Shown here piece after piece: positions 23,692 through 59,938 of a stretch of DNA of 64,000 nucleotides. The stretch comes from an uncultured Gammaproteobacteria bacterium. Its GTDB lineage: Bacteria > Pseudomonadota > Gammaproteobacteria > GCA-002705445 > GCA-002716945. The notes under the pieces were generated by a model. The model saw only the letters and a list, made by a program, of their open reading frames with translations, was not told the DNA's origin and ran no database searches. The position numbers were made by a program, and so were the translations under genes. The stretch covers positions 6,352 through 70,351 of the forward strand of contig CACAVP010000001.1 of NCBI GenBank assembly GCA_902535975.1, in the 5' to 3' direction. The number at the start of each line of letters is the position of its first letter. The first letter of the stretch is position 1.

Positions 23692-24405
23692 CTAAATCGG
23701 ATGTTTTAAGTGGTACTTGATCATACTTAGAATATGTATTAATAAATACTTTATAGACTTACTGCTCTCTCTTGCGCCATGATGTTTAACTTCAAATTGA
23801 CTGGTAAGAAGTATTCTCTCATTTGTAGAGTGAACTCTTTTGCATATATCAACATCCTCATAGTAAAGAAAAAACTGTTCATCGAAACCTCCTATATTTC
23901 TAAATAAACTACTCTCGAATAACATGAACATACCTGATATCCAGTCCACATCATAAACTTTCTTTTCACTAAAAGAATATTCGCTTTTCTTTTTAAAAAT
24001 TCTTTTAAAAGGAGTCAGGATAGACGGAAACATTCGTGCGTTGTCATTATGAGATCCATTATTTGTCACACTTATCGGCGATATTAGTTTAGTATTTGTA
24101 GATACTAATATCTTAATAAGTTCATTTATCATATTAGCCTCGATTTGAACATCAGGATTCAAAATTAAAAAATATTTTGAATCTGATAATGAAAACGCAT
24201 AATTATGATTTTCTCCGAATCCTTTAATTTGAGTATTTCTAACGATTAGTACTCTTTTATTATTTGTATATTTCCTTATAATATTTTCATCTTCACTTAC
24301 ATTTATAGTAAGTATGATCCTTACCTCAGTATTATTGATTAGCTCATCCAACAAGTTTTTTATCATCATGAGTTGTTTATGAGATACTATAGAAACCGTG
24401 ATCAT
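23692..24405 (-). CDS. glycosyltransferase family 2 (rhamnosyltransferase-like)
   Basis: GT-A fold with NPD and YYEDVD (DxD) motifs. 237 aa. Confidence 0.65.
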   Translation of the reverse strand: MITVSIVSHKQLMMIKNLLDELINNTEVRIILTINVSEDENIIRKYTNNKRVLIVRNTQIKGFGENHNYAFSLSDSKYFLILNPDVQIEANMINELIKILVSTNTKLISPISVTNNGSHNDNARMFPSILTPFKRIFKKKSEYSFSEKKVYDVDWISGMFMLFESSLFRNIGGFDEQFFLYYEDVDICKRVHSTNERILLTSQFEVKHHGARESSKSIKYLLIHILSMIKYHLKHPI

Positions 24406-25271
24406 CGAATGTAATTATCCTTTTGTAATAATTGATCTACATAATAACGCCAGTCTTTGATTTGTATTTTAGAAATGTTTCTTAATTTATCATTATCCAA
24501 AACACTATAAAGTGGTCTTCTAGCCGCTAAATCAAGCTTATCCGTACTTATTTTACTAATTTTGATAGAATTAGTATCATTGTCTTTCAGTTTATTATAT
24601 ATGTACATTGCAAATTCATACCATGATGTATTGCCGTTAGGAACAACATTATATATTCCAAAACATGTTTTATCATTATTAATGATATCTAAAACTACTT
24701 TTGCAATAAAGTGAGATGATGTTGGCACGCCAAACTGATCATCAACAATTTTTAAATTATTATTGTTATCTATTGATTGGATTATTTTTGCTAAAAAATT
24801 TCCTTCATACTCTGAATATACCCATGATGTTCTAAATATGAAATATTTATCATGATTTTGAATAATATTTAAATCGCCCTGCTGTTTAGAATATCCATAA
24901 TAATTTATAGGATCCATCTCGGAATCCTCTTTGTAAGGATCAATTGATGCACCAGAAAAAACATAATCACTAGAGAAGTGAATTAATACTATTCCTTTAT
25001 CAGAGCAATATTTTGCTAGGAACTCAGGAAGTTTAGCATTTATTTGATAAGACAATTCTTTATTATTTTCAGCTTCATCAACTTTAGTGTAGGCAGCCGC
25101 ATTTATTATCATTTGTGGATTAAAGGATGATACATGATATGTAAGAGCTTTATAATTTAAGAAATTGAAATCTTTTTTTGAACATGATGATAAAACATGG
25201 TTATCATTAGCAATTATTTTTTGAAGATCCTTCCCTATTTGTCCTTGATTTCCCAATAATAATATTTTCAT
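24402..25271 (-). CDS. rfbD: dTDP-4-dehydrorhamnose reductase
   Basis: ILLLGNQGQIGKDL Rossmann fold. RmlD length and YxxxK. Confidence 0.8.
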   Translation of the reverse strand: MKILLLGNQGQIGKDLQKIIANDNHVLSSCSKKDFNFLNYKALTYHVSSFNPQMIINAAAYTKVDEAENNKELSYQINAKLPEFLAKYCSDKGIVLIHFSSDYVFSGASIDPYKEDSEMDPINYYGYSKQQGDLNIIQNHDKYFIFRTSWVYSEYEGNFLAKIIQSIDNNNNLKIVDDQFGVPTSSHFIAKVVLDIINNDKTCFGIYNVVPNGNTSWYEFAMYIYNKLKDNDTNSIKISKISTDKLDLAARRPLYSVLDNDKLRNISKIQIKDWRYYVDQLLQKDNYIR

Positions 25272-26500
25272 ATTTTTGATACATGTATCTTATTAATTTG
25301 AGAAGCAAAAAAAATTATAAGGACAAGAAAGAATACTACTGCTTGATGATGAGTAAATTGAGTTTGTGTCATCATATAACCAAACTGTGAAATCAAAACT
25401 GATAGGCCTGATATACTAAAATAAGACGCTTCGTTATCCAAATGTTTGCTAAAAAATCTATATAATAATAGATAAAAGATCAATAAGCCTATTATCCCAA
25501 TAAAACCTGCTTTAACCCCAATATCTAGGAAATCATTGTGGGGATGATCTCTTGCTTCGATTCTAATATTCCTCTCGAAACTCTTATCTTTAACTATTTT
25601 TTCGAATTTATTAAACCCAACTCCAATTAATTTATTTTCTTTGATAATATCAAAAGCCGTATCAATGAAAAATACTCTTTCTTTAATAGAATTATCTATA
25701 TTTGATATATATACGGTATCGTTTTGAACTAAGTTTGAAATATTCACAGCATATAGTTGGAATTTTGTACTTAATGGAGTAAGAGACAGAATAAAGATTA
25801 AACCTATCATACTTGCAGTATTTTTAAGGGAGATCCTCATCAAGCCTTTATAAAGTAAATATATCAGAAATAATGCTAAACCAATTAATGAACCAACTGT
25901 CATTGAGAAGGACCATGACAATAAAGATGAGATTAACCCAAGAAATATAAATCTTTTACCTATTTTACAGTCTGAAAGTAAAGCACAGATGTTAAGAATA
26001 AATAATGTCATGCATAAATTTCCATACGTAATAGCTGAGCTAGAGACAGGGTTTAATCGATTTGGATAATCTCTATTAATGCGCTGATCAAATGTAATTT
26101 TATCTTCTGAAAGATAATATATTCCAGAAGATAACAGAGATAGTACAGATAAAATGATTATGACTTTGATAAATGTATTTTCATCAAATTTAATAGAGGA
26201 TAACATTAAATAAATTGGCAATAATAAAATTAGTCTTGAATAATTGTCAAATTCGTTTAACTGTGCTGAGTGGTAAATAAGGGCAAAAGCTATAATCAGA
26301 AACAGTTGAACAAAAGGTATAAAGAAATCTTTAGTGTTTCCTAATTTAAGATTACTCCTACTATCATATAAAAAAATCATAGATGAAATTAATAGGAGTA
26401 TTAATAAAAAATTAGCGATTGATCTGTCGATGAAATTGAAAACAAGAAAAGATATAAAAAGAAATGGAACGAGATTATCGGTATATTTTGTAGATAGCAA
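25268..26500 (-). CDS. O-antigen ligase/polymerase family membrane protein (Wzy_C domain)
   Basis: ~10 TM helices. HPHNDFLDIGVKAGFIGIIG loop motif typical of Wzy/WaaL. Confidence 0.6.
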   Translation of the reverse strand: MLSTKYTDNLVPFLFISFLVFNFIDRSIANFLLILLLISSMIFLYDSRSNLKLGNTKDFFIPFVQLFLIIAFALIYHSAQLNEFDNYSRLILLLPIYLMLSSIKFDENTFIKVIIILSVLSLLSSGIYYLSEDKITFDQRINRDYPNRLNPVSSSAITYGNLCMTLFILNICALLSDCKIGKRFIFLGLISSLLSWSFSMTVGSLIGLALFLIYLLYKGLMRISLKNTASMIGLIFILSLTPLSTKFQLYAVNISNLVQNDTVYISNIDNSIKERVFFIDTAFDIIKENKLIGVGFNKFEKIVKDKSFERNIRIEARDHPHNDFLDIGVKAGFIGIIGLLIFYLLLYRFFSKHLDNEASYFSISGLSVLISQFGYMMTQTQFTHHQAVVFFLVLIIFFASQINKIHVSKI

Positions 26501-26502
26501 TT

Positions 26503-28176
26503 CTAGAACAAGCCAACAATGTTGCCGTCATCATCAATATCTATCCGCTCAGCTGCTGGTATTTTTGGCAAACCAGGCATAGTCATTATGTCACCACAGA
26601 CCATAACAATAAATTCAGCTCCAGCAGACAGCCTTACTTCCCTGATTGGTATCTCATGATTATCTGGTGCGCCTCTAAGAGACGGATCAGTGGAGAAGGA
26701 ATACTGCGTCTTGGCCACACATACCGGAAACTCGCCGTATCCATTATTCTGTAATTCCTCGATTTGTTTTTTTACTGAAGCACTTGCTGTTATGCTTGAA
26801 GCGCCATATATTTTTTTAGCAATCGTCTCCATTTTGTCCCATAACGGCATCTCGTCAGGGTATAAGAAATTAAAATTGTTATCTGATGATTCAATGGTTT
26901 CAACTACAGTCTTAGCAAGCTCCTCAGCTCCTTTTCCTCCGTGAGCCCAATGAGTGGAAGATACAATTGGAACATCAAGTTCACTTGATTTTTTCTTAAG
27001 TAATTCTCTCTCTTTATCTGTATCGAAACTAAAGCCATTTATACCAACTACAACAGGTAGACCGTAGTTATTTTTGATGTTATTAACATGTCTTTCTAGG
27101 TTACTCATTCCTTTCTCAAGATAGTCTATGCCCTCCTCATTGAGGTTTTCAAGTGAGCAGCCACCATGATATTTTAAAGCTCTAATGGTAGCAACTAAGA
27201 CTACAGCAGAGGGTTTTAGATCTGCTTTTCTACATTTAATATCTAAAAATTTTTCAGCACCTAAGTCTGCTCCAAACCCAGCTTCAGTAACAACGAAGTC
27301 TGCAAGCTTAAGCGAAGCTTTAGTAGCAATCACAGAATTACAGCCATGCGCAATATTAGCGAAAGGACCTCCATGAATCACAGCAGGGTTATTTTCTAGA
27401 GTTTGTACTAGATTAGGTTTTAAAGCATCTTTAAGTAACACTGTCATCGCGCCGTCAGCGTTAATATCTTTTGCTAAAATTGGCTTTTTATCTCTTGTGT
27501 ATGCTATTACTATTTTGCCTAGCCTATTTTTTAGATCACCTATTGACGTAGCTAGACAAAATATTGCCATTATTTCAGAAGCTACAACTATATCGAATCC
27601 ATCCTGACGCGGATATCCATTACCTATAGATCCCAGAGAGCAAACAGTACTTCTTAAAGCTCTATCATTCATATCAAGAACTCTTTTCCATGATACCCTC
27701 CTTACGTCTATACCAAGTTTATTTCCATGGTGAATGTGATTATCAAGCATAGCTGCAAGAAGATTGTTTGCTAGCTGGATTGCATTGAAATCTCCGGTAA
27801 AATGAAGATTAATATCTTCCATTGGTATAACTTGTGCCATACCCCCGCCTGCTGCACCACCTTTCATACCAAATACAGGCCCTAGTGAAGGCTCTCTGAT
27901 GGTGACAAGCGCTTTCTTACCAATGAGGTTTAAAGCGTCTCCAAGACCTACAGAGGTAGTTGTTTTTCCTTCTCCAGCTGGGGTTGGGCTAATAGCAGTA
28001 ACTAAAATAAGCTTGCCATCAGGTTTATTTCCAAGAGATTTAATATAATCAAGTGATATCTTAGCTTTGTAGTGTCCAAAGGGCTCGAGTGAATCAATTG
28101 GTATATCAAGCTTCTCCGCGATGCTACCGATTCTTTCTGGACTCGCTGCCTGGGCTATTTCAATATCAGATTTCAT
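26503..28176 (-). CDS. fhs: formate--tetrahydrofolate ligase
   Basis: Full-length [17 protein letters not shown]-loop. 557 aa. Confidence 0.9.
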
Positions 28177-28219
28177 TAGAATAATATTAACAGAAAAAAT
28201 AGGCTAATTACAATTAGGT

Positions 28220-29329
28220 CTAATCAATTCCTCTATTATTTATAACTTTTCTCAAGTTATCAGATTTAGAATAAGGGCTATCAACATCATCAATCATCAA
28301 TGGTTTACTCGCTTTAAGATCTTTTAGGATTATAGTTTCATTTACTATCTCACGACACGACAGCTGTCCCTTGACTAATGGAATAGCTAATTTAAAAAGA
28401 TCGTTAAAATTATCACTAGATATTTTTGTACCTTTAGGGATATCTTTCCTCATATAGATTCCTCTCACTAGTTCATCGAGATAAACAGTCTCTCTATTTG
28501 ATATGATGCGCCTCGAGGTGGAATTGCCACCGCAAATTTCTCTTGCTTTTTGGTATGCTTGAAACCACTCATGTATATTATCGGGTATAGAATTATACTT
28601 TGACACCGCTACACCGCCTTCATTAATATCGATATGTCTTTCCCATGTTCTAGCCCCCTTGGCATACGATGCAATCATTGAATTGGTCCAATTATGATAT
28701 TCATGTGATGAGAAACCAATGATGTTATTTGGATATCTCTTTCTAAGATAATCAATTTGATCTAACTCCAATTCGTGATCCTCGGAGGGATATAATGATA
28801 CACAGTGATTCACTGCAAGAGGAATATCTCTTTTATTGAAGTAGTCAACTATATTATCAATATCAAGTTCCGACATACCTCCAGTTGATACTATTGTCGG
28901 TAATTTTTTTGATGCTATTTTCTCAATTAATGGCCAATCATTTGCATCAGAACTTGCAATTTTGATAATTGGATAGCCTAGTTCTTCACATACATCAACA
29001 GATTTCTCATCGAAAGGTGTTGCCATAGCGATACATCCTGAACTTATAATTTTATCAGAGAGCTTTTTATAGCTACTTTTGGAAAGTTTTGTTGAAATTG
29101 TTTTTGAAATGTATCTCGATTTTTTATAGTTTTTATAATCATCATGAATAAAATTGTCAACATCTCTAATCTGCAATTTTATTGCTGCTTTAATTTTGTT
29201 ATAACGAACAACTTTTGAATATTGTGAAATGATGCTCTCACCTCTTTTGATATCACCCAGATGATTGTTAGCTAATTCAAGTACAAAAAGATCTTGGAGA
29301 AGTTCTTTACCTTTATTATGTTTTGACAT
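28220..29329 (-). CDS. NeuB-family nonulosonic/ulosonic acid synthase (PEP-aldose condensing), with C-terminal AFP-like domain
   Basis: LELANNHLGDIKRGESII vs NeuB EIGINHEGSL. ATPFDEKSVD...IKIASSD...PTIVSTGGMS...AVNHCVSLYPSE...IGFSSHE...ERHI. C-terminal KGTKISSDNF SAF domain. Confidence 0.75.
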   Translation of the reverse strand: MSKHNKGKELLQDLFVLELANNHLGDIKRGESIISQYSKVVRYNKIKAAIKLQIRDVDNFIHDDYKNYKKSRYISKTISTKLSKSSYKKLSDKIISSGCIAMATPFDEKSVDVCEELGYPIIKIASSDANDWPLIEKIASKKLPTIVSTGGMSELDIDNIVDYFNKRDIPLAVNHCVSLYPSEDHELELDQIDYLRKRYPNNIIGFSSHEYHNWTNSMIASYAKGARTWERHIDINEGGVAVSKYNSIPDNIHEWFQAYQKAREICGGNSTSRRIISNRETVYLDELVRGIYMRKDIPKGTKISSDNFNDLFKLAIPLVKGQLSCREIVNETIILKDLKASKPLMIDDVDSPYSKSDNLRKVINNRGID

Positions 29330-29431
29330 GACTCACCCCGAGCTACAATAATTTCTGAGGTTAACATTTGTAGCTTATTATTTCAAATCGAAATTTATTT
29401 CAGAAGAAAAAAGAGTGTATTATATAAAAAA

Positions 29432-30376
29432 TTAATCATCATCAAAATTAATTCTCTTTTCTTCGATGATTATTGGTCTGTTATTTATATAACGTAATAT
29501 ATGAGCAAGATATTCTCCAATAAATCCAATTACAAGAAATAATGCACCAAATAAGAATGACGTGAGTATGATCAATGGCGCAATACCAGCAGAAAAATCT
29601 GACCAAAAGATTAACTTTTTGAAAAAATAATATATACCTATTAGTATGCTTATAAAACTAATGATAAAACCAAAAAAACTTATGATTCTCAAGGGGACTA
29701 TAGAATTACTAATAATTCCTAACATACCTATGTCATAGAGTGTATAGAGATTATTTTTAGTAACACCCTTCTCTCTCCTATTTTGTGTAAATTCAATTAG
29801 TTTAGGTTTAAATCCTAATTCAGTAATCATTCCTCTCAAGTACGGATATGGATCATTTATTTTCTTAATAATATCTATAAATCTTTTTGAATATATACCA
29901 AAACCAGTAGAGTGATGAATAATGTCGTGTTCTGTAATTTTCTTTAAAAATGTGTAATACAAACCTCGTATTTTATGAAATAAAAAATTTGTTTTAGATC
30001 TAGTTTTCACTCCTAAAACTACCTCATCACCTTTAAGCCAAGCATCTACTAACTCAGGGATTAATTCAGGAGGGTCTTGCATATCAGATGCAAGATATAA
30101 CACAGCGTCTGAATTCGTCTGCATCATGGCCCAATATGGTGATCTTATATGCCCAAAATTTCTTTTATTAAAAATAAGCTTTAGTTTTTTGTCTTTAGAG
30201 GCAAGTTTCTCCAACAAAGATCTAGTATCATCTGTACTGGCGTTATCAATAATCAGCACGTCAATATCAATATCACTAATCTTGGATATATTCTTCTTAA
30301 CTGAAGTATAGAAATCTTGAATTATTTCTGCTTCGTTATAACAAGCTGATACAATTGTAAGTGTTTTATTTGGCAT
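29432..30376 (-). CDS. polyprenyl-phosphate sugar synthase (GtrB/ArnC/DPM1-type GT2 with two C-terminal TM helices)
   Basis: TIVSACYNEAE, DNASTDDT and DMQDPP motifs plus C-terminal hydrophobic hairpin. Confidence 0.75.
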   Translation of the reverse strand: MPNKTLTIVSACYNEAEIIQDFYTSVKKNISKISDIDIDVLIIDNASTDDTRSLLEKLASKDKKLKLIFNKRNFGHIRSPYWAMMQTNSDAVLYLASDMQDPPELIPELVDAWLKGDEVVLGVKTRSKTNFLFHKIRGLYYTFLKKITEHDIIHHSTGFGIYSKRFIDIIKKINDPYPYLRGMITELGFKPKLIEFTQNRREKGVTKNNLYTLYDIGMLGIISNSIVPLRIISFFGFIISFISILIGIYYFFKKLIFWSDFSAGIAPLIILTSFLFGALFLVIGFIGEYLAHILRYINNRPIIIEEKRINFDDD

Positions 30377-31379
30377 TTTTAGATTTATCCATAGATGATA
30401 CTCTGATTTTTAACAATAGTTTAGAGATTAACAAAAAAATATCTCCATATCTGATTCTTGATAGCGCAATAACTGAAACACCATAAATCAGCGCAGCCCA
30501 TCGAGGCAATATAACAATCGGTCTTATAATCCTATATGATAGGTATCTACTCAAAGAGCTATCAAATTCAATGAGATTATCAATGGAAATGTGATTTAAC
30601 CTTCTATATAAAAAATATTGCGAATAAAATAAAAGGATAGTTTTTATGAGTACTTTTTTATAAATATCACTGTCTAGGTATGATAAAAGTTGTTGACTAT
30701 AGTTGTTAACGAAAATCTCATAGAAATCATAGTTATATTCATAGTTTATTTTTGCAGCAATCATAAATTTTCCAATATACAAGTTATTATTATGACTAGA
30801 TGCTTGTAAAAGTAAATTCAATTGATATAAGGAGGTGTTTTCCGAATGCACAGCATCACTAAAATCAACTAGCTCTCTATTGACTATGATCGAAGAGATG
30901 AAAGTAGATCTATATGATACTTTCTCAATGAAATGATTAAAATCATAAGCATAAGTTAGTTCATTAAAAATGGGTTTTTCATCATATGATTTTTTATACC
31001 CGTAAGAGTTAAGGAATATACATGATAGCTCTTTATCTCTTATTTCTTTGATAAGATATGCTATGCTATCTTCTAGAATATAATCATCGTCTCCAACAAC
31101 CCAAATATACTTTCCGCTAGCTTTTTTGTAACAATTTATAATATTCTTATCGCCACCAATATTTTCTGAATTTTGAATAATCACTAAATGCTGCTTCAGT
31201 GATTTATATTTACTAAGAACATCTAGCTTATAATTAGATGAGTCATTGATTGATACAAGAATTTCTAATTCTATATTTTCATCCATGGCTATGATGTTTG
31301 TTTCAAGTGACTTTATACATAATTCAAAAAGATCTTCTCTCTGATATGTTGGAATACAAATAGATAATAATTTAGACAT
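30366..31379 (-). CDS. glycosyltransferase family 2
   Basis: SICIPTYQRE start. DDDYIL DxD motif. GT-A fold. Confidence 0.65.
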   Translation of the reverse strand: MSKLLSICIPTYQREDLFELCIKSLETNIIAMDENIELEILVSINDSSNYKLDVLSKYKSLKQHLVIIQNSENIGGDKNIINCYKKASGKYIWVVGDDDYILEDSIAYLIKEIRDKELSCIFLNSYGYKKSYDEKPIFNELTYAYDFNHFIEKVSYRSTFISSIIVNRELVDFSDAVHSENTSLYQLNLLLQASSHNNNLYIGKFMIAAKINYEYNYDFYEIFVNNYSQQLLSYLDSDIYKKVLIKTILLFYSQYFLYRRLNHISIDNLIEFDSSLSRYLSYRIIRPIVILPRWAALIYGVSVIALSRIRYGDIFLLISKLLLKIRVSSMDKSKNAK

Positions 31380-37223: not shown

Positions 37224-37255
37224 AATAATCTCTGTAATATTTAAACTTATCTAAA

Positions 37256-40330: not shown

Positions 40331-40344
40331 AGTATAAGTTTACC

Positions 40345-40755
40345 TCAATCCTCAGCTTTAAATGTAATTTTACTCTGCCAAAGATATCCAAATAATATAA
40401 CAGGTATTGCAAACATATATTGAGCAATTACAGGATGTAGACTTAAATAATATATCAGAGCAGGTAATATTATTATATTAAATAAATAAACAATTACATG
40501 ATAAGTACTAAACTTGAATAACTCTGATATATAATTACCAGAAGTCTTAAATACATAAATCTTATTAGTCATGTATGCAAATAGGACGGAAATTATGTAT
40601 GATCCCGTAAGAATTTGGAGATAGTGAAAATTAAATTCAAATAATACAAAGTATAAAATTGGGAATATACTAAGACCTACTATAGTATTTACGATTCCTA
40701 CATAGAGATAACTTTTTAATTTATTCTCAGCCAACACGTTGGTACTATTTTTCAT
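40345..40755 (-). CDS. GtrA-family polyprenyl-phosphate-sugar flippase-like membrane protein
   Basis: 136 aa with four hydrophobic helices. Y.YVGIVNTIVGLSIFPILYF N-terminus typical of GtrA. Confidence 0.55.
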   Translation of the reverse strand: MKNSTNVLAENKLKSYLYVGIVNTIVGLSIFPILYFVLFEFNFHYLQILTGSYIISVLFAYMTNKIYVFKTSGNYISELFKFSTYHVIVYLFNIIILPALIYYLSLHPVIAQYMFAIPVILFGYLWQSKITFKAED

Positions 40756-48720: not shown

Positions 48721-48744
48721 AAAATTTATTATTTAGTTTGGTAA

Positions 48745-50876: not shown

Positions 50877-50878
50877 TG

Positions 50879-52862: not shown

Positions 52863-53259
52863 GATGTTTTCTATGTAAAAAATATTTTCTTAATGAAAAG
52901 TTTAATATATAAGTGAAGAATATTAATAAAATTCTGGAGTATAAATAATATACACCAAATATATCAGTAAGGATCCACATTGCAAAAACTGTGAATCCTA
53001 AGACTGCCGTTGATATCAAAATATAGCTTCCGAATTCTAATGTAAAGTTATCTCTAAATCTCCTTGATGAAAAGACCCAATTAACTGAAATAAAATAATT
53101 AACTACTGATCCAACAAAAAATCCTATAGTAGTCCCATATAAATAATAGATATCGAAGTATGTGACTAATAGGTACAATGTCGAGATATCTGATAGTGTA
53201 GCAATGCCCCCTACTACAGCATATTTAAGGCCCTCACTGATTAAACGTTTATCGAGCAC
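52840..53259 (-). CDS. GtrA-family membrane protein
   Basis: 139 aa. YAVVGGIATLSDISTLYLLV. Four helices. Confidence 0.55.
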   Translation of the reverse strand: MLDKRLISEGLKYAVVGGIATLSDISTLYLLVTYFDIYYLYGTTIGFFVGSVVNYFISVNWVFSSRRFRDNFTLEFGSYILISTAVLGFTVFAMWILTDIFGVYYLYSRILLIFFTYILNFSLRKYFLHRKHHETKSYS

Positions 53260-53983
53260 TTTTGAAAAACCTATTGAAAGTATAATATATCAAAAGATAT
53301 ATAGAATTTTTTATGGATTTTGATGAAACGCTTGCAGATGGTGATTTATATGTTATCGGGGTCTCTATACATTTGAATTTTTTCATTATATATCTTATTT
53401 CTGTTTGATAAAAATGTGAGGTTGACTTTATCCCATAATTGATAAGATGCGAAACTGCTTCTCTTTTCATAGCAATAAATCCTGAGGTTCCGTCTTTATA
53501 CGACATACCAAGCAATAAATTAGAAAACATAGTCCCTAACCTTGATAAATAATGTCTAGATGGACGTGAGTTATAAATAGAGCCCCCCTTTATAAATCGT
53601 GACCCAAAGACACAATCGTAATTTTTGTCTAAAAGTTCTAAAAACTTATAAATATCATCAGGATTATGTGATAACCCTCCATCCATCTCAATCACCGCAT
53701 CATGATTATCATCGTATGCTTTAGTATATCCTAGTATATATGCATCAATTGCATTCTTGTTATCTTCACCCCACAGAAAAACAAATCTATCATCTTTAGC
53801 ACTTATTTCCTCACATATTGATCTTGTGTTATCTTTAGATGCATTGTCTACAACTAGATAAATAGTAAATTTGTATTGTAATGAGGCAATCGATGAACAA
53901 ATGCTTTTATACAACTCGCGAGTAGTTTTGCTCTCATTTGCTAGCGGAATAACTATGCCAATAGAATCTAATTTATCATTCAT
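53249..53983 (-). CDS. GT2 polyprenyl-phosphate glycosyltransferase, soluble DPM1-like
   Basis: IVIPLANE, VVDNASKDNT and EMDGGLSHNP motifs. 244 aa. Confidence 0.6.
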   Translation of the reverse strand: MNDKLDSIGIVIPLANESKTTRELYKSICSSIASLQYKFTIYLVVDNASKDNTRSICEEISAKDDRFVFLWGEDNKNAIDAYILGYTKAYDDNHDAVIEMDGGLSHNPDDIYKFLELLDKNYDCVFGSRFIKGGSIYNSRPSRHYLSRLGTMFSNLLLGMSYKDGTSGFIAMKREAVSHLINYGIKSTSHFYQTEIRYIMKKFKCIETPITYKSPSASVSSKSIKNSIYLLIYYTFNRFFKSAR

Positions 53984-54051: not shown

Positions 54052-54597
54052 GTGTATAATAGGTGTATTGTACATGAATATAGTATGAAATATTATAAAA
54101 AAGAAATCCCGGAAATAATAATCTTTGAGCCTAGTTTGCATGAAGATGAAAGGGGCTGTTTTTATGAGAGTTATGTTAAAGAATTTTATGATAATGCAAT
54201 TGGTAGAGATGTAAATTTTATTCAGGAAAATGTTTCAGTTTCGAAACTAGGTGTATTAAGAGGTATGCATTATCAAACGCAGCCTTATGAACAGGCTAAG
54301 CTAATCAGTGTAGCTAAAGGAGAAGTATTTGATGTTGCATTAGATATAAGAGAAGATTCTCTGACTTATGGTAAATGGACAAGTGAAATAATATCATCTG
54401 ATAATAATAAGAGAATGTGGATACCAGAGGGTTTTGCACATGGTTTTCTTGCTTTAACTGATGATGTTGTCCTAAATTACAAGACTACAGAATATTACTC
54501 GCCTGACCATGAGATAATTTTTAAATATAATGATCCTAAATTTTCTATCGATTGGCCAAAGGAAATTAACTACATAATTTCAGAAAAAGATTCATAA
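54052..54597 (+). CDS. rfbC: dTDP-4-dehydrorhamnose 3,5-epimerase
   Basis: Cupin. RGCFYES, RGMHYQ and WIPEGFAHGF motifs. Confidence 0.85.
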   Translation: MYNRCIVHEYSMKYYKKEIPEIIIFEPSLHEDERGCFYESYVKEFYDNAIGRDVNFIQENVSVSKLGVLRGMHYQTQPYEQAKLISVAKGEVFDVALDIREDSLTYGKWTSEIISSDNNKRMWIPEGFAHGFLALTDDVVLNYKTTEYYSPDHEIIFKYNDPKFSIDWPKEINYIISEKDS

Positions 54598-54605: not shown

Positions 54606-55655
54606 TTAATTATTCCGATAGCCTCTGCCGAGTCTGACATTAGATTTATGCTCTTTCAGAATATTAGAGGTCCATTCTTTATTTTCTAAGTACCAGTCAA
54701 CAGTTTTTTCTAGACCTTCTATAATATCAACCTGTGGATTCCATAATAGCTCGTTGATAATTTTACTCGCATCAATAGCATATCTTCTATCGTGGCCAGG
54801 TCGATCTGACACATATTCAATTAAATAATCATAAGATTTATCTGAGGGTACTTTCTCATCTAGAATCCTACAAATATTTTTGACTATATCAATGTTATAA
54901 CACTCATTATCAGATCCTATCATGTAGGTCTCACCTACTTTCCCATTTTCCATTACTGAAAAGAGCGCATCAACGTGATCATCGACATATATCCAATCAC
55001 GAATCTGTTTACCATCGCCATATATTGGTATTTTCCTGCCCAAAAGTGCATTTGTAATTGTGAGGGGAATCAACTTCTCTGGGAACTGATAAGGGCCATA
55101 ATTGTTTGAACAATTTGTGATTATTGCAGGAATATGATGCGTATTAATCCAGGATCTTACCAAATGATCGCTTGAAGCCTTTGATACAGAATATGGATTG
55201 AGAGGATCGTATTTTGTATCTTCGTTGAACTTAATATTATTTTTCACAGATCCAAAAACTTCATCAGTAGAAATATGATGAAAAACAATATTATCAGGGC
55301 AGTCCTTTTTAACCCAGTACTTCGTAAATTCATCAAGGAGAACACACGTCCCCATTATATTAGTCGATAACACAGTAAAAGCTGAATCTATAGACCTATC
55401 TACATGACTTTCGGCTGCCAGATGAAAAATATATTCAGGTTGAAAATTTTCAAAGATATTATGTATCTTATCCTGATCTCTAATATCTGTCTGCTCAAAA
55501 GAATATTTTGGATGTTTCTCGATTGAGACAAGGTTTGTGAGTGAACCGGCATAGGAAAGACAGTCGACATTTAAAACAGTATGACCTCTCTTTATGGCTG
55601 ATAGGGTAACATTTGTACCGATAAAACCTGCGCCCCCTGTAATTAGAATTCGCAT
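54606..55655 (-). CDS. rfbB: dTDP-glucose 4,6-dehydratase
   Basis: MRILITGGAGFIG. YSVSK. RmlB length. Confidence 0.85.
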   Translation of the reverse strand: MRILITGGAGFIGTNVTLSAIKRGHTVLNVDCLSYAGSLTNLVSIEKHPKYSFEQTDIRDQDKIHNIFENFQPEYIFHLAAESHVDRSIDSAFTVLSTNIMGTCVLLDEFTKYWVKKDCPDNIVFHHISTDEVFGSVKNNIKFNEDTKYDPLNPYSVSKASSDHLVRSWINTHHIPAIITNCSNNYGPYQFPEKLIPLTITNALLGRKIPIYGDGKQIRDWIYVDDHVDALFSVMENGKVGETYMIGSDNECYNIDIVKNICRILDEKVPSDKSYDYLIEYVSDRPGHDRRYAIDASKIINELLWNPQVDIIEGLEKTVDWYLENKEWTSNILKEHKSNVRLGRGYRNN

Positions 55656-55658
55656 AAA

Positions 55659-57017
55659 CTAAACTCGATCATATATGTCATCAAATCGTATAATATCATC
55701 TTCTTCAAGATAGTCGCCGATTTGTATTTCAATCAACTTCAGCGGTGTTGACTGATCATTCCAGAGCATATGTTTATCATTTTTATCTATACAAGTTGAT
55801 TCATTTATCGATAAACTAAATATCTTATTATTTTTTTGTATCTGTGCGGTTCCCTCTAAAACTATCCAATGCTCAGTCCTTCTTCTATGACTCTGAAGAG
55901 ATAGTTTGCCATTTGGATCAACATGAAGAATTTTTATTTGATAACCAGGATATTTTAATAGGGATTCATACCATCCCCATGGTTTATATATTTTTTTTGT
56001 TTCCATTGTTTGAAGAGTATCAATATTGGATATAATATTTTTGATGTCACTTAGTTTACTTTTTTCAATACATAAAGTTTTCTGATTGGCGACGACGCAG
56101 ACTATATCTCTTAATCCAATGCCTATGACTTCATGGTTGTTGTCATAGGATTTTACAAAAGAATTTTCTGATTCTATCAGTAAATCCGATGACGAGTGCT
56201 CTGCAATACTCTTCCAGTCTCCCAGATCAGACCAGTGCTTTTCATACTTGAAACAACCTATATTTTCTATTTTTTCCATTATTGCAGTGTCAAACGAAAT
56301 ATTGTTTAAGTTTGTCCATAATTCCGAAATAATATGGGTTTCTCGTGCGTTATAATTCGTCTGAGATGAGATTCTATATAATTTGTCAAATAAGCCTACG
56401 TCGACTTTTTTTATAATTTCTAGTAACTTAGAAACTTGGAATAAAAACATTCCTGAATTCCATAGGTAGTTACCCGAATTAAACATTTCTTCTGCTTTTA
56501 ATTTATTTGGCTTTTCAAAAAAGTTTGTAACCGATGACACAAGAGACTCACCACTTGATTGAATATAGCCATATTGATCTGATGCATATTTAGGTGTAAT
56601 TCCAAATGTAATTACATTGAAATGATCTATAAATTTCATACTAGATTTTACAGCAAAATCAAAGTAATCACTATTTGGTATGTAATGATCTGAAGGCATA
56701 ACTAACATATATGCATCTTGATTTTTGTTCAAGAGGCAGGATATCAATATGCTTGCAGCTGTATTCTTCCCATCATTCTCATAGATAACTTTTTCATAGA
56801 GCTGTGAATCTATTTCATCTATAAAAGGTTTATGTTTTATATTCGTAGAAATTATAGGTTTCTCAAATACCTCACTTTTGCATCGACTGAGTGTCTGTGT
56901 AAGTAACATTTGATTATTAATTATTAATTGGTATTGTTTAGGTTTGTTAACTTGAGATAAAGGCCACAATCTTGTTCCTGAGCCTCCAGCTAAAATCAAT
57001 GGTATAATTTTTTCCAT
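55659..57017 (-). CDS. manC: mannose-1-phosphate guanylyltransferase / mannose-6-phosphate isomerase (type II PMI-GMP)
   Basis: LILAGGSGTRLWPLS NTase domain. C-terminal cupin. Start set at the internal Met (57017) abutting the gmhA stop. Confidence 0.8.
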   Translation of the reverse strand: MEKIIPLILAGGSGTRLWPLSQVNKPKQYQLIINNQMLLTQTLSRCKSEVFEKPIISTNIKHKPFIDEIDSQLYEKVIYENDGKNTAASILISCLLNKNQDAYMLVMPSDHYIPNSDYFDFAVKSSMKFIDHFNVITFGITPKYASDQYGYIQSSGESLVSSVTNFFEKPNKLKAEEMFNSGNYLWNSGMFLFQVSKLLEIIKKVDVGLFDKLYRISSQTNYNARETHIISELWTNLNNISFDTAIMEKIENIGCFKYEKHWSDLGDWKSIAEHSSSDLLIESENSFVKSYDNNHEVIGIGLRDIVCVVANQKTLCIEKSKLSDIKNIISNIDTLQTMETKKIYKPWGWYESLLKYPGYQIKILHVDPNGKLSLQSHRRRTEHWIVLEGTAQIQKNNKIFSLSINESTCIDKNDKHMLWNDQSTPLKLIEIQIGDYLEEDDIIRFDDIYDRV

Positions 57018-57018
57018 A

Positions 57019-57618
57019 TCACTCAGAGTCTTTAACATCTCCGAAAAGCTTGAACTCAACTGACTCACAGATCATATGACCAGCGATAGCATGGACTTCC
57101 TGAATCTTTGGAGTTTGGTCAGAATTAACTGAAATCACAACATCACAATTATCTGCTAGAAGTTTAGTCTCGCACCCAGACATTGCAATTATGCTTTTGA
57201 CTAGTGGCCTAGCGTCTTTTAAAAGTTCAAGAATATTCTCTGATTTTCCAGACGTAGTGTAAACTATCAACGTATCATCGTTTGTCCCAAAAGCTTGTAT
57301 TTGTCTTGAAAAGACTTTTTCATATCCATAATCATTAGAAATACATGTTAAGTTAGAAGTATTGGTAGTTAATGCTATCGCAGGAAGAGACGGTCTATTA
57401 AAATTAAATCTGCCAACAAACTCAGCGCATATATGTTGACTATCTGCTGCGCTCCCTCCATTACCTGCAAGCATGACTTTCCCTTTTTTATTGTATGTAT
57501 CAATAATCAATTCTGAGGCTTTTTTGAGAGATTCTAAGAATTCTCTAGAATTTAGAGATTCATTAATTACTTCTTTGGATTTCTCCAAGGAATTCATGAG
57601 TAGGGTTTCAATGTTCAT
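57019..57618 (-). CDS. gmhA: phosphoheptose (sedoheptulose-7-phosphate) isomerase
   Basis: SIS domain. GNGGSAADSQHICAEFVGRF aligns with E. coli GmhA [21 protein letters not shown]. Confidence 0.75.
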   Translation of the reverse strand: MNIETLLMNSLEKSKEVINESLNSREFLESLKKASELIIDTYNKKGKVMLAGNGGSAADSQHICAEFVGRFNFNRPSLPAIALTTNTSNLTCISNDYGYEKVFSRQIQAFGTNDDTLIVYTTSGKSENILELLKDARPLVKSIIAMSGCETKLLADNCDVVISVNSDQTPKIQEVHAIAGHMICESVEFKLFGDVKDSE

Positions 57619-57622
57619 TTTT

Positions 57623-58435
57623 TTAAAATTTAGTATTGTCTAAAATATCACATTTCCCATCATTTTTTGAATTTTTACTAGTAATTTTAATAAGACCAGA
57701 TACGCGATTTATATTAATTTTTGAATCTGAATTTGTAGCAGCTATTAAAATTTCACTAAATTCTGGTTTATAATATTTTTTTGAATCAAATTCAAATTGA
57801 TAAAAAATCCTATCAGACTCGTTAAAAACAAATGTAAGTTCATGATCATTCATCTGACATAATATGAATTTATTTTTCTTAGCATATTCTGTTTCTGGTT
57901 GTATATATGCTACAGGAGGAATGATATCGTCCATGTCATCTATAGATCTTGTTTTTGTACTTTCATTAACTTCTTTTTCTCTCTGATTTAGACTTTCAGG
58001 GATATCTTTTACAAGCATAGTTTTTGTCTCATTTCTTGTAATACAATACTCAAATGGAATGGTTAGGAGCCCAGAGTCATATAAATGCAATATTACTTTT
58101 TTGTCATTTATGATAAACAAATGATTGCGCCAACCCTTATAGTAGTCTCCTTTTTTCTCATTAATGGATAGACAAACTCTATAACCACTATAGATATCTC
58201 CCAGATGATCGATAGTCAACTTTTGGGGTGCATTTACGAATTCAATTTTTGTCGTTTGATGGTCTTCAATATTATTTATCAAGTAGTCTTTTAAAATAAC
58301 GTTGTATGTTTTGGGGTACTCACCGTAATCATCTTGTGAAACTTTGATATTTAGATCAGAAGATATAACAGATTGAGATGCAATATTAGTACATCCAGCT
58401 AATAAAAAAAATGTTATATAAACTAGAAATTTCAT
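57623..58435 (-). CDS. lipoprotein of unknown function
   Basis: Lipobox LLAGC after a hydrophobic signal. 270 aa. No recognised domain. Confidence 0.4.
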   Translation of the reverse strand: MKFLVYITFFLLAGCTNIASQSVISSDLNIKVSQDDYGEYPKTYNVILKDYLINNIEDHQTTKIEFVNAPQKLTIDHLGDIYSGYRVCLSINEKKGDYYKGWRNHLFIINDKKVILHLYDSGLLTIPFEYCITRNETKTMLVKDIPESLNQREKEVNESTKTRSIDDMDDIIPPVAYIQPETEYAKKNKFILCQMNDHELTFVFNESDRIFYQFEFDSKKYYKPEFSEILIAATNSDSKININRVSGLIKITSKNSKNDGKCDILDNTKF

Positions 58436-58436
58436 A

Positions 58437-58520
58437 TGCCCAGGGCCGGAGTCGAACCGGCACGAGATTGCTCTCGAGGGATTTTAAGTCCCTTGCGTCT
58501 ACCAATTCCGCCACCCGGGC
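58437..58520 (-). tRNA. tRNA-Leu (anticodon UAA)
   Basis: Reverse complement GCCCGGGTGGCGGAATTGGTAGACGC...CTTAAAA loop...GGTTCGACTCC. Class II long arm. Confidence 0.85.
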
Positions 58521-58696
58521 TGTAATTATATTTGTATGTAGACATAATTCTTTTGTTTATATAGTTCGTAATTCACATAAATATAGGAAGTAATATGCTA
58601 AGTAAGATAACATATCATGGTAAATTTTAGTATAGATTTATAAGCTATGGAAAGATTAATTATTATGCGCGAACGGATATTCTTTGGCTGCAATCA

Positions 58697-59938
58697 TCAA
58701 GTACCTTTCTTTCTTAGCATGATCATTACAGTTCTTAAGCCTATCTCTAATTCAAGCCAAAAGGACCAATTTTTAATATAATAAAGATCAAACATTAGCT
58801 TTTCAACAGCATCTTCCTCATTGTGTCCATATCGAAACATAACTTGTGCGAAACCAGTTATTCCTGGGGATACATTATTACGTAGATTGTAATTTTTTAT
58901 CTTATCTGAATAGTGCTTATGTAAATCTATCCATTCTGCTCTTGGTCCAGATATATGCATGTCTCCGAACAAGACATTTAGAAATTGTGGCATTTCATCT
59001 ATTCTTGTTTTCCTCATAAATGATCCATATGGAAATATTCTTTGTTTATCATTAATATTTTTTTCTGTTGTTTTGTCATGCATACTCTTTATTTTTAATA
59101 TTCTAAAAATTTTACCATTCTTTCCAATTCTATCTTGAGTAAAAATGAATCTCCCTGGTGATTGGTGTTGTACCGCTAGAAATGACATAGGTATTATAAC
59201 TAAACATATTGGAATAAAAAAAATAATAACCAACGAGTCAATTAATTTTTTAAGAATGAATTGAAAATAATTGTATCTCATAATATTGCTTTCTTCAGAG
59301 TTGAACTTATCATATGTAGTTTTTCTCAGATAGGATTCTAAAAACTTATCTATATCTATGATTTTATAATTATAGTTCACTTTGTCATCCTCAAGAACAT
59401 TAGATGTATTATTCACAACAAGGGATATTGTTTCATCGTGGTTGTATGAATCAAAGTCCTCGCAGACAGTATATTTGATATTCATATTTTTAAGCAGAGT
59501 AGAATCATTGTTTGATAACTCATATGAGTTGCCTATTATGGCAATTTTAATAATATTTTTTTCATATCGTGCTATTAGCTCATTTCCGACAATGACTAAG
59601 CAGAGAAGAAATGGGGTTAAAACAATATAATCATACACGAACTGCCTATCGCTTATAGCGAGAAGTAATAATACTATTATCATAAAAGAATAAAAAAAAG
59701 ATATGCAGAGATATTTTAATCGATAATTTAAATGGATGAGTATGTTGCTATATTTATTAGAGTGAAAAATAGTAAATAGATGAAAAACTATCCCAAAAGA
59801 TAATAAGGCGAAAAGATTTAATGAAATACTCTCATCTTCATACTGAATAAATGTGATCCAAAAAAGTATTGGAGCGATCATATTGAATAATAAACGAGGA
59901 ATTTGCTTACTATCAAAAATGTACATAACGTCCCACAC
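58697..59938 (-). CDS. undecaprenyl-phosphate sugar phosphotransferase (WbaP/WcaJ-type initiating transferase)
   Basis: C-terminal bacterial sugar transferase domain ...ISGPRAE...SPGITGFAQV.... N-terminal TM helices. 413 aa. Confidence 0.8.
   Translation of the reverse strand: MWDVMYIFDSKQIPRLLFNMIAPILFWITFIQYEDESISLNLFALLSFGIVFHLFTIFHSNKYSNILIHLNYRLKYLCISFFYSFMIIVLLLLAISDRQFVYDYIVLTPFLLCLVIVGNELIARYEKNIIKIAIIGNSYELSNNDSTLLKNMNIKYTVCEDFDSYNHDETISLVVNNTSNVLEDDKVNYNYKIIDIDKFLESYLRKTTYDKFNSEESNIMRYNYFQFILKKLIDSLVIIFFIPICLVIIPMSFLAVQHQSPGRFIFTQDRIGKNGKIFRILKIKSMHDKTTEKNINDKQRIFPYGSFMRKTRIDEMPQFLNVLFGDMHISGPRAEWIDLHKHYSDKIKNYNLRNNVSPGITGFAQVMFRYGHNEEDAVEKLMFDLYYIKNWSFWLELEIGLRTVMIMLRKKGT

Follow-up and report, generated by a model that had tools for sequence, protein, structure and literature searches.

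Gene content and distribution of the locus

The locus analyzed here occupies positions 23692-59938 of a 64-kb window (the whole stretch of DNA under study, with a GC content of 32% and 5 tRNA genes) from an abundant uncultured marine gammaproteobacterium, the near-identical strains of which carry different sugar coats. It contains 33 open reading frames (ORFs). In Pfam and NCBIfam profile scans, which covered all ORFs of at least 80 amino acids (aa) between 19.7 and 64 kb, every one of them except the formate-tetrahydrofolate ligase gene fhs could be linked to sugars by family match or context, in agreement with an earlier note on this DNA that had described a glycan-dominated island. The most conspicuous components are a branched-sugar cassette (28220-42884) and a putative module for GDP-6-deoxy-heptose synthesis that includes a candidate GT75 mutase (48028-53983), both encoded on the minus strand, accompanied by rhamnose and mannose genes, glycosyltransferases, and putative assembly proteins. 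We consider the locus very probably to be a replacement-type flexible genomic island, which specifies a strain-specific surface glycan and is swapped by homologous recombination. Islands of this kind are already known; it is the 2 unusual sugar-building modules that carry the interest of this one.

The island is poorer in GC (30.9%) than the core on its left (35.0%) and right (32.5%), and the GC content at third codon positions (GC3) is 0.237 versus 0.269 in the core (Mann-Whitney p = 0.002). Thus, the region is more AT-rich, as the earlier note had suggested, but the difference is modest and the GC profile has no sharp compositional edge, with the stretch at 15.6-23.7 kb being just as low; the minimum, 26%, coincides with a pair of plus-strand genes at 45136-48031. 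The same note had seen no integrase, transposase, or direct repeat, and this was borne out: no integrase, transposase, recombinase, or conjugation family matched any ORF of at least 80 aa, the repeat scan found neither flanking direct repeats nor significant repeat pairs (only short AT-rich chance matches), and an Rfam scan of the window returned only the 5 tRNAs and AT-rich chance matches.

Core and island differ in how widely they are represented in sequence databases, a measure taken here as a proxy for the recruitment of metagenomic reads. The exact sequence of the acyl carrier protein (ACP) is present on at least 1000 contigs, and for 8 of the 9 core proteins looked up, the clusters at 90% identity have 139-851 members (FabG is a singleton), whereas those of 16 of the 17 island genes looked up have 1-16. 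About 8 other ENA contigs, 25-40 kb long, carry the same island type, with protein identity of at least 90% along the entire island. In addition, TARA Oceans and NCBI marine-metagenome contigs hold a collinear version with 80% nucleotide identity over window positions 21398-38176, in which divergence is greatest for the glycosyltransferase, Wzy, and Wzx (61-72% protein identity). Exact look-ups of the 3-dehydroquinate synthase (DHQS)-like, DCC1, and TupA proteins matched no record, and a genome-contig scan anchored on fhs, which is too conserved for this purpose, gave only 62-74% identical matches from unrelated taxa.

Borders and variability among relatives

For comparison, 20 long contigs sharing the core flanks were retrieved with PgsA and ACP as exact-match anchors; nearly all are nanopore assemblies of seawater metagenomes, the sample names of which appear to point to the Great Barrier Reef (fetched loci are designated L001 and onward). 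The long-read assemblies with these flanks are deposited as ENA ERZ28548055-099. The right flank (fabH-udg-uvrC-pgsA-tRNA-Gly-tRNA-Cys) is 94.6-97.9% identical at the nucleotide level in 10 contigs, and in 10 out of 10 relatives the alignment ends at window positions 59940-59981, that is, at the 3' end of tRNA-Cys. The left flank (4131-19539, from rmuC to dnaK, followed by fabD-fabG-acpP-fabF, metX, and an SNase-type nuclease gene) is 93.7-95.9% identical in 10 contigs, with the alignments ending at 19439-19590, at the 3' end of the nuclease gene (approximately 19.56 kb). Immediately beyond, identity drops to 67-72% over positions 19594-23528 in 10 relatives, of which L112-L114 are mosaics. 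The swapped block hence spans about 40.4 kb (19.56-59.95 kb), and both of its edges are located to within about 150 nt. The tRNA cluster (tRNA-Leu/Cys/Gly, 58437-60106), which the earlier note had named as the right end, holds up as such, with the border at the 3' end of tRNA-Cys. By contrast, the tup transporter genes, which it had taken for a conserved flank, lie inside the divergent block, which begins about 4 kb further to the left: given that tupABC, the cryptochrome gene, and DCC1 are only 67-72% identical in most relatives, they are part of what is swapped.

The genes found between the 2 breakpoints fall into a scaffold and a cargo. The scaffold (DCC1, cryptochrome/DPRP, tupA, tupC, tupB, fhs, gmhA, a 270-aa lipoprotein gene, tRNA-Leu, and the initiating transferase gene) is 67-75% identical at the nucleotide level, versus 94-98% in the flanks. 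The glycan cargo ranges from about 1 kb to about 32 kb among the relatives, and the total length between the breakpoints from about 10 kb to about 40 kb. The smallest version is that of L003, a contig running from pgsA through the nuclease gene, with a total of about 10 kb between the breakpoints and a nearly empty island of about 6.5 kb, in which gmhA adjoins fhs and a single epimerase gene precedes tupB. Differing glycan genes were found in L001, L002, L003, L004, L005, L007, L113, and L114: L001 and L005, for instance, carry genes for a Wzy_C protein, C-methyltransferases, and an amine oxidase, L004 those for DegT, an RmlC-like protein, and NeuB, and L007 those for Fhs, a Wzy_C protein, UDP-glucose dehydrogenase, GT1, and a NusG paralogue. 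The latter, a 160-aa protein encoded amid glycosyltransferases (L007:9268-9750), may be an RfaH-like antiterminator for a long glycan operon. Three contigs are mosaics with breakpoints inside cryptochrome/tupA: L112 is 82% identical to the window up to position 22389, L113 90% up to 21548, and L114 94% up to 21418, after which identity falls to about 70%.

Flanks of 94-98% identity, different cargo between the same 2 breakpoints, and mosaics together form the signature of replacement flexible genomic islands (PMC4033161, PMC4898812, PMC11898729). Such haplotypes of about 40 kb would be swapped among close lineages by homologous recombination anchored in the flanks, namely metX and the nuclease gene on the left and tRNA-Cys, tRNA-Gly, pgsA, and uvrC on the right. 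The proposal of the earlier note that this is a homologous-recombination replacement locus is thereby well supported, and neither uniform GC nor identical content among relatives was seen. Against this reading, the comparators are error-prone nanopore assemblies near the species boundary (94-98%), and part of the apparent strain variation may therefore be variation between sister species.

A different origin, site-specific insertion of a phage-like or otherwise integrative mobile island at the tRNA cluster, would be in keeping with a right border exactly at the 3' end of tRNA-Cys, with the position of the initiator gene between tRNA-Cys and tRNA-Leu, and with a GC content slightly below that of the core. 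Yet, none of the ORFs of at least 80 aa matches a mobility family, the 3' end of the tRNA is not directly repeated, and the left border is the 3' end of a protein-coding gene rather than an att site. Moreover, this chromosomal site is occupied in every relative by an island with common scaffold genes, and the mosaic breakpoints lie inside such genes. This explanation is thus already largely refuted and appears exceedingly improbable. It is also practically inconceivable that foreign glycan genes were joined to this core during assembly or binning, even though the window comes from a metagenome-derived contig of 131.7 kb and the island is slightly lower in GC. In independently assembled sequences of other samples, these flanks continue into homologous scaffold genes at the same breakpoints, the additional long contigs carry the same island type, TARA contigs join tupABC to the cassette, and codon-position GC is near that of the core.

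The variation extends to other cell-surface functions. At least 7 relatives carry a gene for the lipid A deacylase PagL precisely at the left breakpoint, where it separates the nuclease gene from DCC1 (L106-L111, approximately 15430-16005), whereas the window has only a 138-nt gap at this site (19559-19697). Lipid A modification is therefore a further trait that differs among island haplotypes. In a sister lineage (L097-L099), the same tRNA-Cys/initiator/tRNA-Leu/lipoprotein/gmhA scaffold is combined with RgpF and with Wzm/Wzt, i.e., ABC-transporter-dependent export, and thus the assembly pathway itself has been swapped between island variants.

Scaffold genes, cargo slots, and a split tRNA operon

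The left part of the scaffold (19560-23687, minus strand) has kept its gene content between strains, while its sequence has diverged by about 30%. The housekeeping gene fhs, found in L003, L007, L091, and 8 of the contigs L106-L115 (all but L113 and L114), is only about 75% identical at the nucleotide level in L003 and L007, despite right flanks that match at 95-98%. Such hitch-hiking divergence of a housekeeping gene is extreme, and it is likewise seen in tupABC and the cryptochrome gene. On the right, gmhA is kept in all relatives with sequence there except L007, and the lipoprotein gene stands beside tRNA-Leu in every relative with sequence there. The identity of the encoded proteins is 37-74% for GmhA and the lipoprotein taken together, 37-64% for the lipoprotein, and 34-58% for the initiating transferase.

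The position of the initiator gene is unusual. The order in Escherichia coli K-12 is uvrC-pgsA-glyW(GCC)-cysT(GCA)-leuZ(UAA), with 12 nt between cysT and leuZ, whereas here and in L001-L007 the initiator gene fills a gap of about 1.4 kb between tRNA-Cys and tRNA-Leu. The ancestral glyW-cysT-leuZ tRNA operon has thus been split by this gene. The E. coli-like synteny is one of the grounds for placing the organism among the Gammaproteobacteria; a SAR86-like identity is a guess. In the more distant lineage L097 (49-4762), a trio of short-chain dehydrogenase/reductase (SDR), DHQS-like, and kinase genes is also found inside this gap. Overall, there are 3 cargo slots: tupB/fhs, fhs/gmhA, and tRNA-Cys/tRNA-Leu. 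In the window, the first of them (23692-26500, minus strand) holds a GT2 gene, rmlD, and the gene for the Wzy_C protein. This block is absent in 7-8 out of 10 relatives, in which fhs directly follows tupB, indicating that it is itself cargo, and L113 has rmlC/rmlD in its place. All features are listed in Table 1.

Table 1. Features of the island and its scaffold, in window coordinates
Feature	Position	Strand	Match or remark
DCC1-like	19697-20050	-	Pfam/NCBIfam
cryptochrome/DPRP	20047-21534	-	Pfam/NCBIfam
tupA	21609-22412	-	Pfam/NCBIfam
tupC	22402-23031	-	Pfam/NCBIfam
tupB	23028-23687	-	Pfam/NCBIfam
GT2, rhamnosyltransferase-like (weak)	from 23692	-	Pfam/NCBIfam
rmlD	24402-25271	-	277 bits
Wzy_C protein (polymerase, ligase, or O-oligosaccharyltransferase)	25268-26500	-	62 bits
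fhs, formate-tetrahydrofolate ligase	26503-28176	-	909 bits to NF010030
NeuB-like	28220-29329	-	nearest solved relative is the uncharacterised 3G8R, 191 bits
GtrB-like GT2	29432-30376	-	146 bits to PgfS
GT2 (interspersed in cassette)	30366-31379	-	GT2 domain
Wzx-like flippase (interspersed in cassette)	31372-32598	-	weak, 74 bits
YerE/JanthE-like ThDP enzyme	32591-34390	-	418 bits to JanthE (PDB 8RPH)
SDR reductase	34387-35424	-	family match
rfbG	35417-36466	-	452 bits, above cut-off
rfbF	36450-37223	-	401 bits, above cut-off
FGGY-like kinase, 413 aa	37256-38497	-	FGGY_N, E = 0.002; 28% identity to L100 FGGY
DHQS-like	38494-39669	-	120-145 bits to true DHQS proteins
SDR	39647-40330	-	family match
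GtrA	40345-40755	-	60 bits
GT-C protein, 676 aa	40854-42884	-	PMT_2, E = 7e-9
605-aa polytopic membrane protein, ~11 transmembrane segments plus C-terminal soluble domain	42932-44749	-	orphan family
462-aa protein, C-terminal SAM-methyltransferase-like domain	within 45136-48031	+	weak Pfam only
505-aa membrane-anchored sulfatase/alkaline-phosphatase-like protein	within 45136-48031	+	weak Pfam only
hddC	48028-48720	-	188 bits
GDP-heptose 4,6-dehydratase	48745-49776	-	519 bits to C. jejuni 7US5
GT75 NDP-pyranose mutase (candidate)	49773-50876	-	154 bits to MtdL 7XPR/7YUA, residues 34-327
Fcl-like 3,5-epimerase/4-reductase	50879-51847	-	206 bits to E. coli GDP-fucose synthetase 1E6U
hddA	51822-52862	-	294 bits
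GtrA	52840-53259	-	68 bits
short GtrB-like GT2	53249-53983	-	65 bits
rmlC	54052-54597	+	217 bits, above TIGRFAM equivalog cut-off
rmlB	54606-55655	-	438 bits, above TIGRFAM equivalog cut-off
manC	55659-57068	-	382 bits, above TIGRFAM equivalog cut-off
gmhA	57019-57618	-	177 bits
270-aa lipoprotein, no family match	57623-58435	-	N-terminal LAGC lipobox
tRNA-Leu(UAA)	58437-58520	-	tRNA scan
polyprenyl-phosphate glycosyl-1-phosphate transferase (WbaP/WcaJ-type initiator)	58697-59938	-	Bac_transf 164 bits; TIGR03025 223 bits
tRNA-Cys(GCA) and tRNA-Gly(GCC)	59955-60106	-	tRNA scan

A recurrent, putative branched-sugar cassette

The branched-sugar cassette is not confined to this lineage. In L100-L105, which are neighbourhoods of 41-57%-identical homologues in unrelated metagenomic loci, the cassette proteins are 28-59% identical to the copies in the window, and the recurring partners are rfbF, rfbG, the thiamine diphosphate (ThDP)-dependent enzyme, SDR, DHQS-like, FGGY kinase, NeuB-like, epimerase, GtrA, GtrB, and large membrane protein genes, in some cases joined by RfbH and a HAD gene. 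Cassettes homologous to that of the window were found in L100, L103, L104, and L105. RfbH itself has no match in the window and is present in the homologous L100 cassette (758 bits). Of 80 further metagenome loci with a DHQS-like gene, 55 have sequence upstream of it, and in 52 of these the gene directly preceding it, on the same strand, encodes an SDR. Among the 18 loci that extend at least 4 kb to either side, 8 have a YerE-like ThDP gene within 10 kb (3 out of 3 for the closer relatives). Since the NeuB-like, DHQS-like, kinase, SDR, ThDP, rfbF/rfbG, and Gtr genes recur together, they represent one co-inherited unit rather than 3 separate chemistries. One of the unrelated glycan loci, L103, also encodes a 397-aa protein resembling the RuBisCO large subunit (PF00016; 14677-15870), a few genes downstream of its NeuB-HAD-ThDP-SDR-DHQS-like cassette.

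The ThDP enzyme scores 418 bits against JanthE versus 266 bits against acetolactate synthase. JanthE is a YerE-like carboligase, the natural substrates of which are unidentified (PMC12188165). The DHQS-like protein matches true DHQS proteins at 120-145 bits, versus 68-80 bits for 2-epi-5-epi-valiolone synthase (EEVS), desmethyl-4-deoxygadusol synthase (DDGS), and 2-deoxy-scyllo-inosose synthase (DOIS). It keeps the active-site residues R130, K152, N162, E194, K250, R264, N268, H271, H275, H287, and K356, all of which are invariant across an alignment of 25 family members, while the K197R substitution and an N-terminal SSPRxY motif are common to the family. Against the aroB model, it reaches 261 bits (cut-off 305), and the TIGR04425 model scores higher, with 296 bits (cut-off 400). 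The protein forms a singleton cluster at 90% identity, although about 12 copies at 81-99% identity were recovered, and the island of L003 does not encode it.

Several more familiar assignments were rejected. The DHQS-like gene is not a housekeeping aroB (3-dehydroquinate synthase), given its score below the cut-off, its singleton cluster, and its absence from L003. Nor does it encode a cyclitol-forming sedoheptulose 7-phosphate (SH7P) cyclase such as EEVS, DDGS, or 2-epi-valiolone synthase (EVS), because it retains an active site of the type acting on 3-deoxy-heptulosonate 7-phosphate (DAHP) and is closer to true DHQS. A nonulosonic (sialic, pseudaminic, or legionaminic) acid pathway was discarded as well: the NeuB-like protein scores 114 bits against PseI (cut-off 340) and 109 bits against NeuB (cut-off 400), and the window scans matched neither a CMP-synthetase nor NeuA, NeuC, or PseB/C/F/G/H.

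We found no paper describing the cassette, and the papers on bradyrhizose and caryose gave no gene-level information. A published unifying scheme for acyl-branched sugars combines a CDP-4-keto-deoxyhexose with a YerE-like enzyme and a YerF-like reductase, the functionalised alpha-keto acid being provided by a further enzyme (PMC9306805), and this scheme is the best frame for the cassette, with the NeuB-like, kinase, and DHQS-like genes presumably supplying the alpha-keto acid donor. We tentatively suggest, as a possibility that is far from assured, that the SDR-DHQS-like pair, the NeuB-like protein, and the FGGY-like kinase may make up a pathway, so far undescribed, by which long polyhydroxylated acyl-branched sugars of caryophyllose type are built. 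In such a route, a DAHP-type 3-deoxy-heptulosonate 7-phosphate would come from the shikimate pathway or from the NeuB-like enzyme (with the kinase), the DHQS-like enzyme would strip its phosphate by DHQS-type chemistry, and the SDR would trap the 6-keto intermediate as 3,7-dideoxy-heptulosonate. The ThDP enzyme would then take the alpha-keto acid donor and branch C4 of CDP-4-keto-6-deoxyglucose, and the dedicated GtrB/GtrA/GT-C system would deliver the product to the glycan in the periplasm. It is equally conceivable that, instead of this open-chain route, cyclisation does occur, giving a quinate-like carbocycle or a carbocycle-fused sugar. Either route, if true, would explain what a widespread but unannotated enzyme family does and provide a candidate physiological context for JanthE-type enzymes.

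A probable GDP-6-deoxy-heptose module with a candidate GT75 mutase

The second module combines hddC and hddA with genes for a GDP-heptose 4,6-dehydratase, an Fcl-like 3,5-epimerase/4-reductase, and a GT75 protein, and ends with a GtrA/GtrB-like pair. The scores of GmhA, HddA, and HddC are each below the equivalog cut-off of the respective model. MtdL, which the GT75 protein matches, is a Mn-dependent pyranose-furanose mutase of GDP-L-galactose and GDP-L-fucose, and MtdL and Hyg20 were the sole characterised bacterial GT75 members as of 2023 (PMC9937993). The protein encoded in the island keeps the DDD motif, R159, D195, S228, Q229, R257, and D260 of MtdL, with N42 replaced by K. In Campylobacter jejuni HS:10, 6-deoxy-L-galacto-heptofuranose is present, and a mutase of the FADH2 type has been assumed (PMC10680097). 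The FADH2-type CDP- and GDP-furanose mutases were considered as an identity for the island protein and set aside, as they belong to a different enzyme family.

An Fcl-type enzyme acting on a 4-keto-6-deoxy-heptose would yield the L-galacto configuration, which is the one accepted by MtdL and Hyg20; we therefore predict that the module makes GDP-6-deoxy-L-galacto-heptofuranose, by way of a mutase that would be analogous, but not orthologous, to that assumed in C. jejuni. An alternative product is GDP-L-fucofuranose, formed from manC-derived GDP-mannose. Metagenomes contain many homologues of the GT75 protein, 2031 of them at E <= 1e-20 and most of these labelled hypothetical; a search of all the other fetched loci found none. 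Two findings speak against the heptofuranose assignment: relative to MtdL, the island protein carries the substitutions D87V and H287Q, the latter affecting a Mn ligand, and the single extra GT75 context, that of a more distant homologue in L197, consists of 6-deoxyhexose rather than heptose genes. From the lack of GT75 in the other fetched loci and its 6-deoxyhexose surroundings in L197, it follows that the association with heptose genes is specific to this island type.

An orphan membrane protein and an opposite-strand gene pair

Between the 2 modules lies the gene for a 605-aa membrane protein of an orphan family. It has no Pfam (even at E <= 5) or NCBIfam match, and none of 10 distant relatives scanned has a significant Pfam match; its AlphaFold2 model has a pLDDT confidence score of 48. 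Searches of 5.8 billion clusters and of 1.84 billion representatives yielded 3 close homologues and about 90 distant relatives, respectively. Possibly, the protein acts as the periplasmic transferase for the second Gtr system, a reading weakened by the lack of any relation between it and the GT-C protein (40854-42884) in an hhalign comparison.

The adjacent pair of plus-strand genes encodes 2 proteins with Pfam E values of 3e-4 and 7e-4. The 505-aa protein is a possible phospho-substituent transferase. A 29-nt inverted repeat with 86% complementarity (44979-45007/48006-48034) brackets this pair, which forms the sole long segment on the opposite strand. The repeat could be the trace of a 2-gene module that was inserted or inverted, or a chance match in AT-rich DNA.

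Nucleotide sugars, glycosyltransferases, and a model of assembly

The gene inventory agrees with that of the earlier note in its outlines and departs from it in several particulars. Genes of the dTDP, CDP, GDP-mannose, and GDP-heptose pathways proposed there were confirmed, with RmlB, RmlC, and RmlD of the dTDP-L-rhamnose set above their cut-offs, but rmlA and gmhB were not found in the window. The protein regarded as a NeuB-type synthase does belong to the NeuB family, albeit far below the NeuB and PseI cut-offs. Both GtrA proteins and both GtrB-type synthases (GtrB/PgfS/ArnC-like GT2 proteins) were recovered, as were the polymerase or ligase (Wzy_C), the WbaP-type initiator (Bac_transf), and the putative Wzx, the last only weakly (74 bits versus a cut-off of 300). 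In place of at least 5 GT2 enzymes, there are 4 GT2-domain proteins (genes starting at 23692, 29432, 30366, and 53249), 2 of which are GtrB-like. Of the 2 large membrane proteins thought to be GT-C-like, one has a PMT_2 match and the other, the 605-aa protein, shows no GT-C relation. The first Gtr system thus has all 3 parts (GtrA, GtrB-like, and GT-C), and the second consists of GtrA and a short GtrB-like protein, with no verified transferase.

The product is most likely an O-antigen-like polysaccharide linked to undecaprenyl diphosphate, and we infer its assembly order, donor sugars, and end products as follows. The WbaP-type enzyme would start the unit on undecaprenyl phosphate, 2 GT2 enzymes would extend it, with dTDP-rhamnose and GDP-mannose as likely donors, the Wzx-like protein would flip it, and the Wzy_C protein would polymerise or ligate it. 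Side branches would subsequently be attached in the periplasm by the 2 Gtr-type systems, which would draw on undecaprenyl-phosphate-linked sugars. The cassette of CDP-glucose, YerE-like ThDP, NeuB-like, kinase, and SDR-DHQS-like enzymes would provide one of these branches, an acyl-branched 6-deoxyhexose, and the GDP-heptose, dehydratase, Fcl-like, and GT75 module the other, a 6-deoxy-heptose that is probably 6-deoxy-L-galacto-heptofuranose.

Several absences and ambiguities count against such a polysaccharide being made from the island as drawn. Neither rmlA (ORFs of at least 80 aa across the 64-kb window; it may lie elsewhere in the genome) nor gmhB or a CMP-sugar (CMP-ulosonate) synthetase (Pfam/NCBIfam scans) was found within the window, and the dTDP, GDP-heptose, and ulosonic-acid routes are therefore incomplete there. 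In addition, the window scans detected no Wzz and only 1 Wzy_C protein, and with such a gene set an O-antigen, a protein O-glycan, and a lipooligosaccharide are indistinguishable from sequence.

The Wzy_C domain (PF04932) is common to WaaL ligases, Wzy polymerases, and PglL-type transferases. The locus might accordingly serve general protein O-glycosylation, with the Wzy_C protein acting as a PglL-type enzyme, or a capsule instead of the O-antigen of lipopolysaccharide (LPS), a view that would also suit the single Wzy_C protein, the lack of Wzz, and the use of Wzm/Wzt by the sister variant. However, no Wza/Wzb/Wzc or Kps export genes were detected in the window scans, and both the presence of gmhA in the fixed scaffold and the PagL gene that flanks the block in relatives point to LPS, so that we regard such a role as unlikely.

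The earlier note had deduced an unusually complex repeat unit with branched deoxyhexose, (deoxy)heptose, ulosonic acid, and possibly cyclitol residues, and the presence of NeuB-, DHQS-, and ThDP-family genes might indeed suggest at least 4 independent pathways (branched deoxyhexose, ulosonic acid, cyclitol, heptose, rhamnose, and mannose), each adding a residue to one repeat. This we find very unlikely. The NeuB-like protein lacks a CMP-synthetase partner in the window in addition to its low scores, the DHQS-like active site is of the DAHP rather than the SH7P cyclase type, and these genes travel with rfbF/rfbG and a Gtr system in unrelated loci as a single recurrent cassette. Furthermore, there are only 2 conventional GT2 enzymes besides the initiator, and for this reason we infer a short backbone, decorated in the periplasm by 2 Gtr-type systems, to be the likelier structure, rather than an exceptionally complex repeat.

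Surface-glycan replacement islands are regarded as a means by which numerous clones of a single marine species can coexist in spite of phage pressure; this locus is a clean, well-bounded example with unusually many hitch-hiking housekeeping genes (tupABC, fhs, and the cryptochrome gene). The cargo is the more useful result, as it connects YerE-type branched-sugar chemistry with a DHQS-like/SDR pair, a kinase, and a NeuB-like synthase. The possible presence of a metal-dependent GT75 mutase within a GDP-heptose pathway is a second enzyme hypothesis; both are testable on purified proteins, even though the organism itself cannot be cultured.

Comparison with known systems

Replacement flexible genomic islands in the form of "glycotype" or O-chain clusters have been described in Alteromonas and Pelagibacterales (PMC4033161, PMC4898812, PMC11898729). 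As in those, the locus has a fixed position with differing glycan sets in near-identical strains of an abundant planktonic host, and displays homologous recombination, raised divergence at the borders, and no mobility genes. It differs in host lineage and position, being lodged between a nuclease gene and a split glyW-cysT|leuZ operon, in dragging along about 10 non-glycan or scaffold genes at about 30% nucleotide divergence, and in distributing its cargo over 3 slots. With the enterobacterial O-antigen clusters between galF and gnd, it shares nucleotide-sugar genes, glycosyltransferases, putative Wzx and Wzy proteins, low GC, rml, man, and CDP-sugar modules, and neighbouring housekeeping genes with hitch-hiking diversity, as is the case for gnd. 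Unlike in those clusters, the initiator gene is within the locus, inside a tRNA operon, and 2 Gtr-type systems are built into it rather than being prophage-borne.

Characterized acyl-branched sugar pathways include those of yersiniose (YerE/YerF), erwiniose (ErwE), and caryophyllose (MMAR_2332) (PMC9306805). The cassette resembles them in that rfbF/rfbG adjoin genes for an acetolactate synthase-like ThDP enzyme and SDR reductases and in that the functionalised alpha-keto acid needed as donor could come from a separate enzyme. In contrast to these pathways, RfbH (E1) is missing from the window, and the predicted acceptor would therefore be CDP-4-keto-6-deoxyglucose; the class II pyruvate aldolase is replaced by the NeuB-like phosphoenolpyruvate-dependent synthase, the FGGY-like kinase, and the SDR-DHQS-like pair; and delivery is predicted to proceed via GtrA/GtrB/GT-C.

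In the GDP-6-deoxy-heptose pathway of C. jejuni (PMC10680097; 7US5), cupin epimerases and reductases are separate enzymes, for which the island would substitute a single Fcl-like bifunctional enzyme. Furthermore, the mutase candidate of the island is of the metal-dependent GT75 type, not of the FADH2 type assumed for C. jejuni, and gmhB lies outside the window, if present. The GT75 protein has in common with MtdL and Hyg20 (PMC9937993) the nucleophile Arg159, the base Asp260, the DDD motif, Asp195, Ser228, Gln229, and Arg257, and those enzymes act on L-galacto GDP sugars, such as the Fcl-like enzyme would make. It differs from them in the Asp87Val, His287Gln, and Asn42Lys substitutions and in belonging to a surface-glycan heptose locus of a Gram-negative bacterium instead of an actinomycete antibiotic cluster. 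Finally, the 2 GtrA and 2 GtrB/PgfS/ArnC-like GT2 proteins, with a PMT_2-type GT-C protein adjoining the first pair, recall the Gtr (GtrA/GtrB/GtrC) and ArnC/ArnT systems. Unlike typical Gtr systems, those of the island are chromosomal, stand beside their presumed donor pathways, and are predicted to handle rare CDP- and GDP-activated sugars rather than UDP-glucose.

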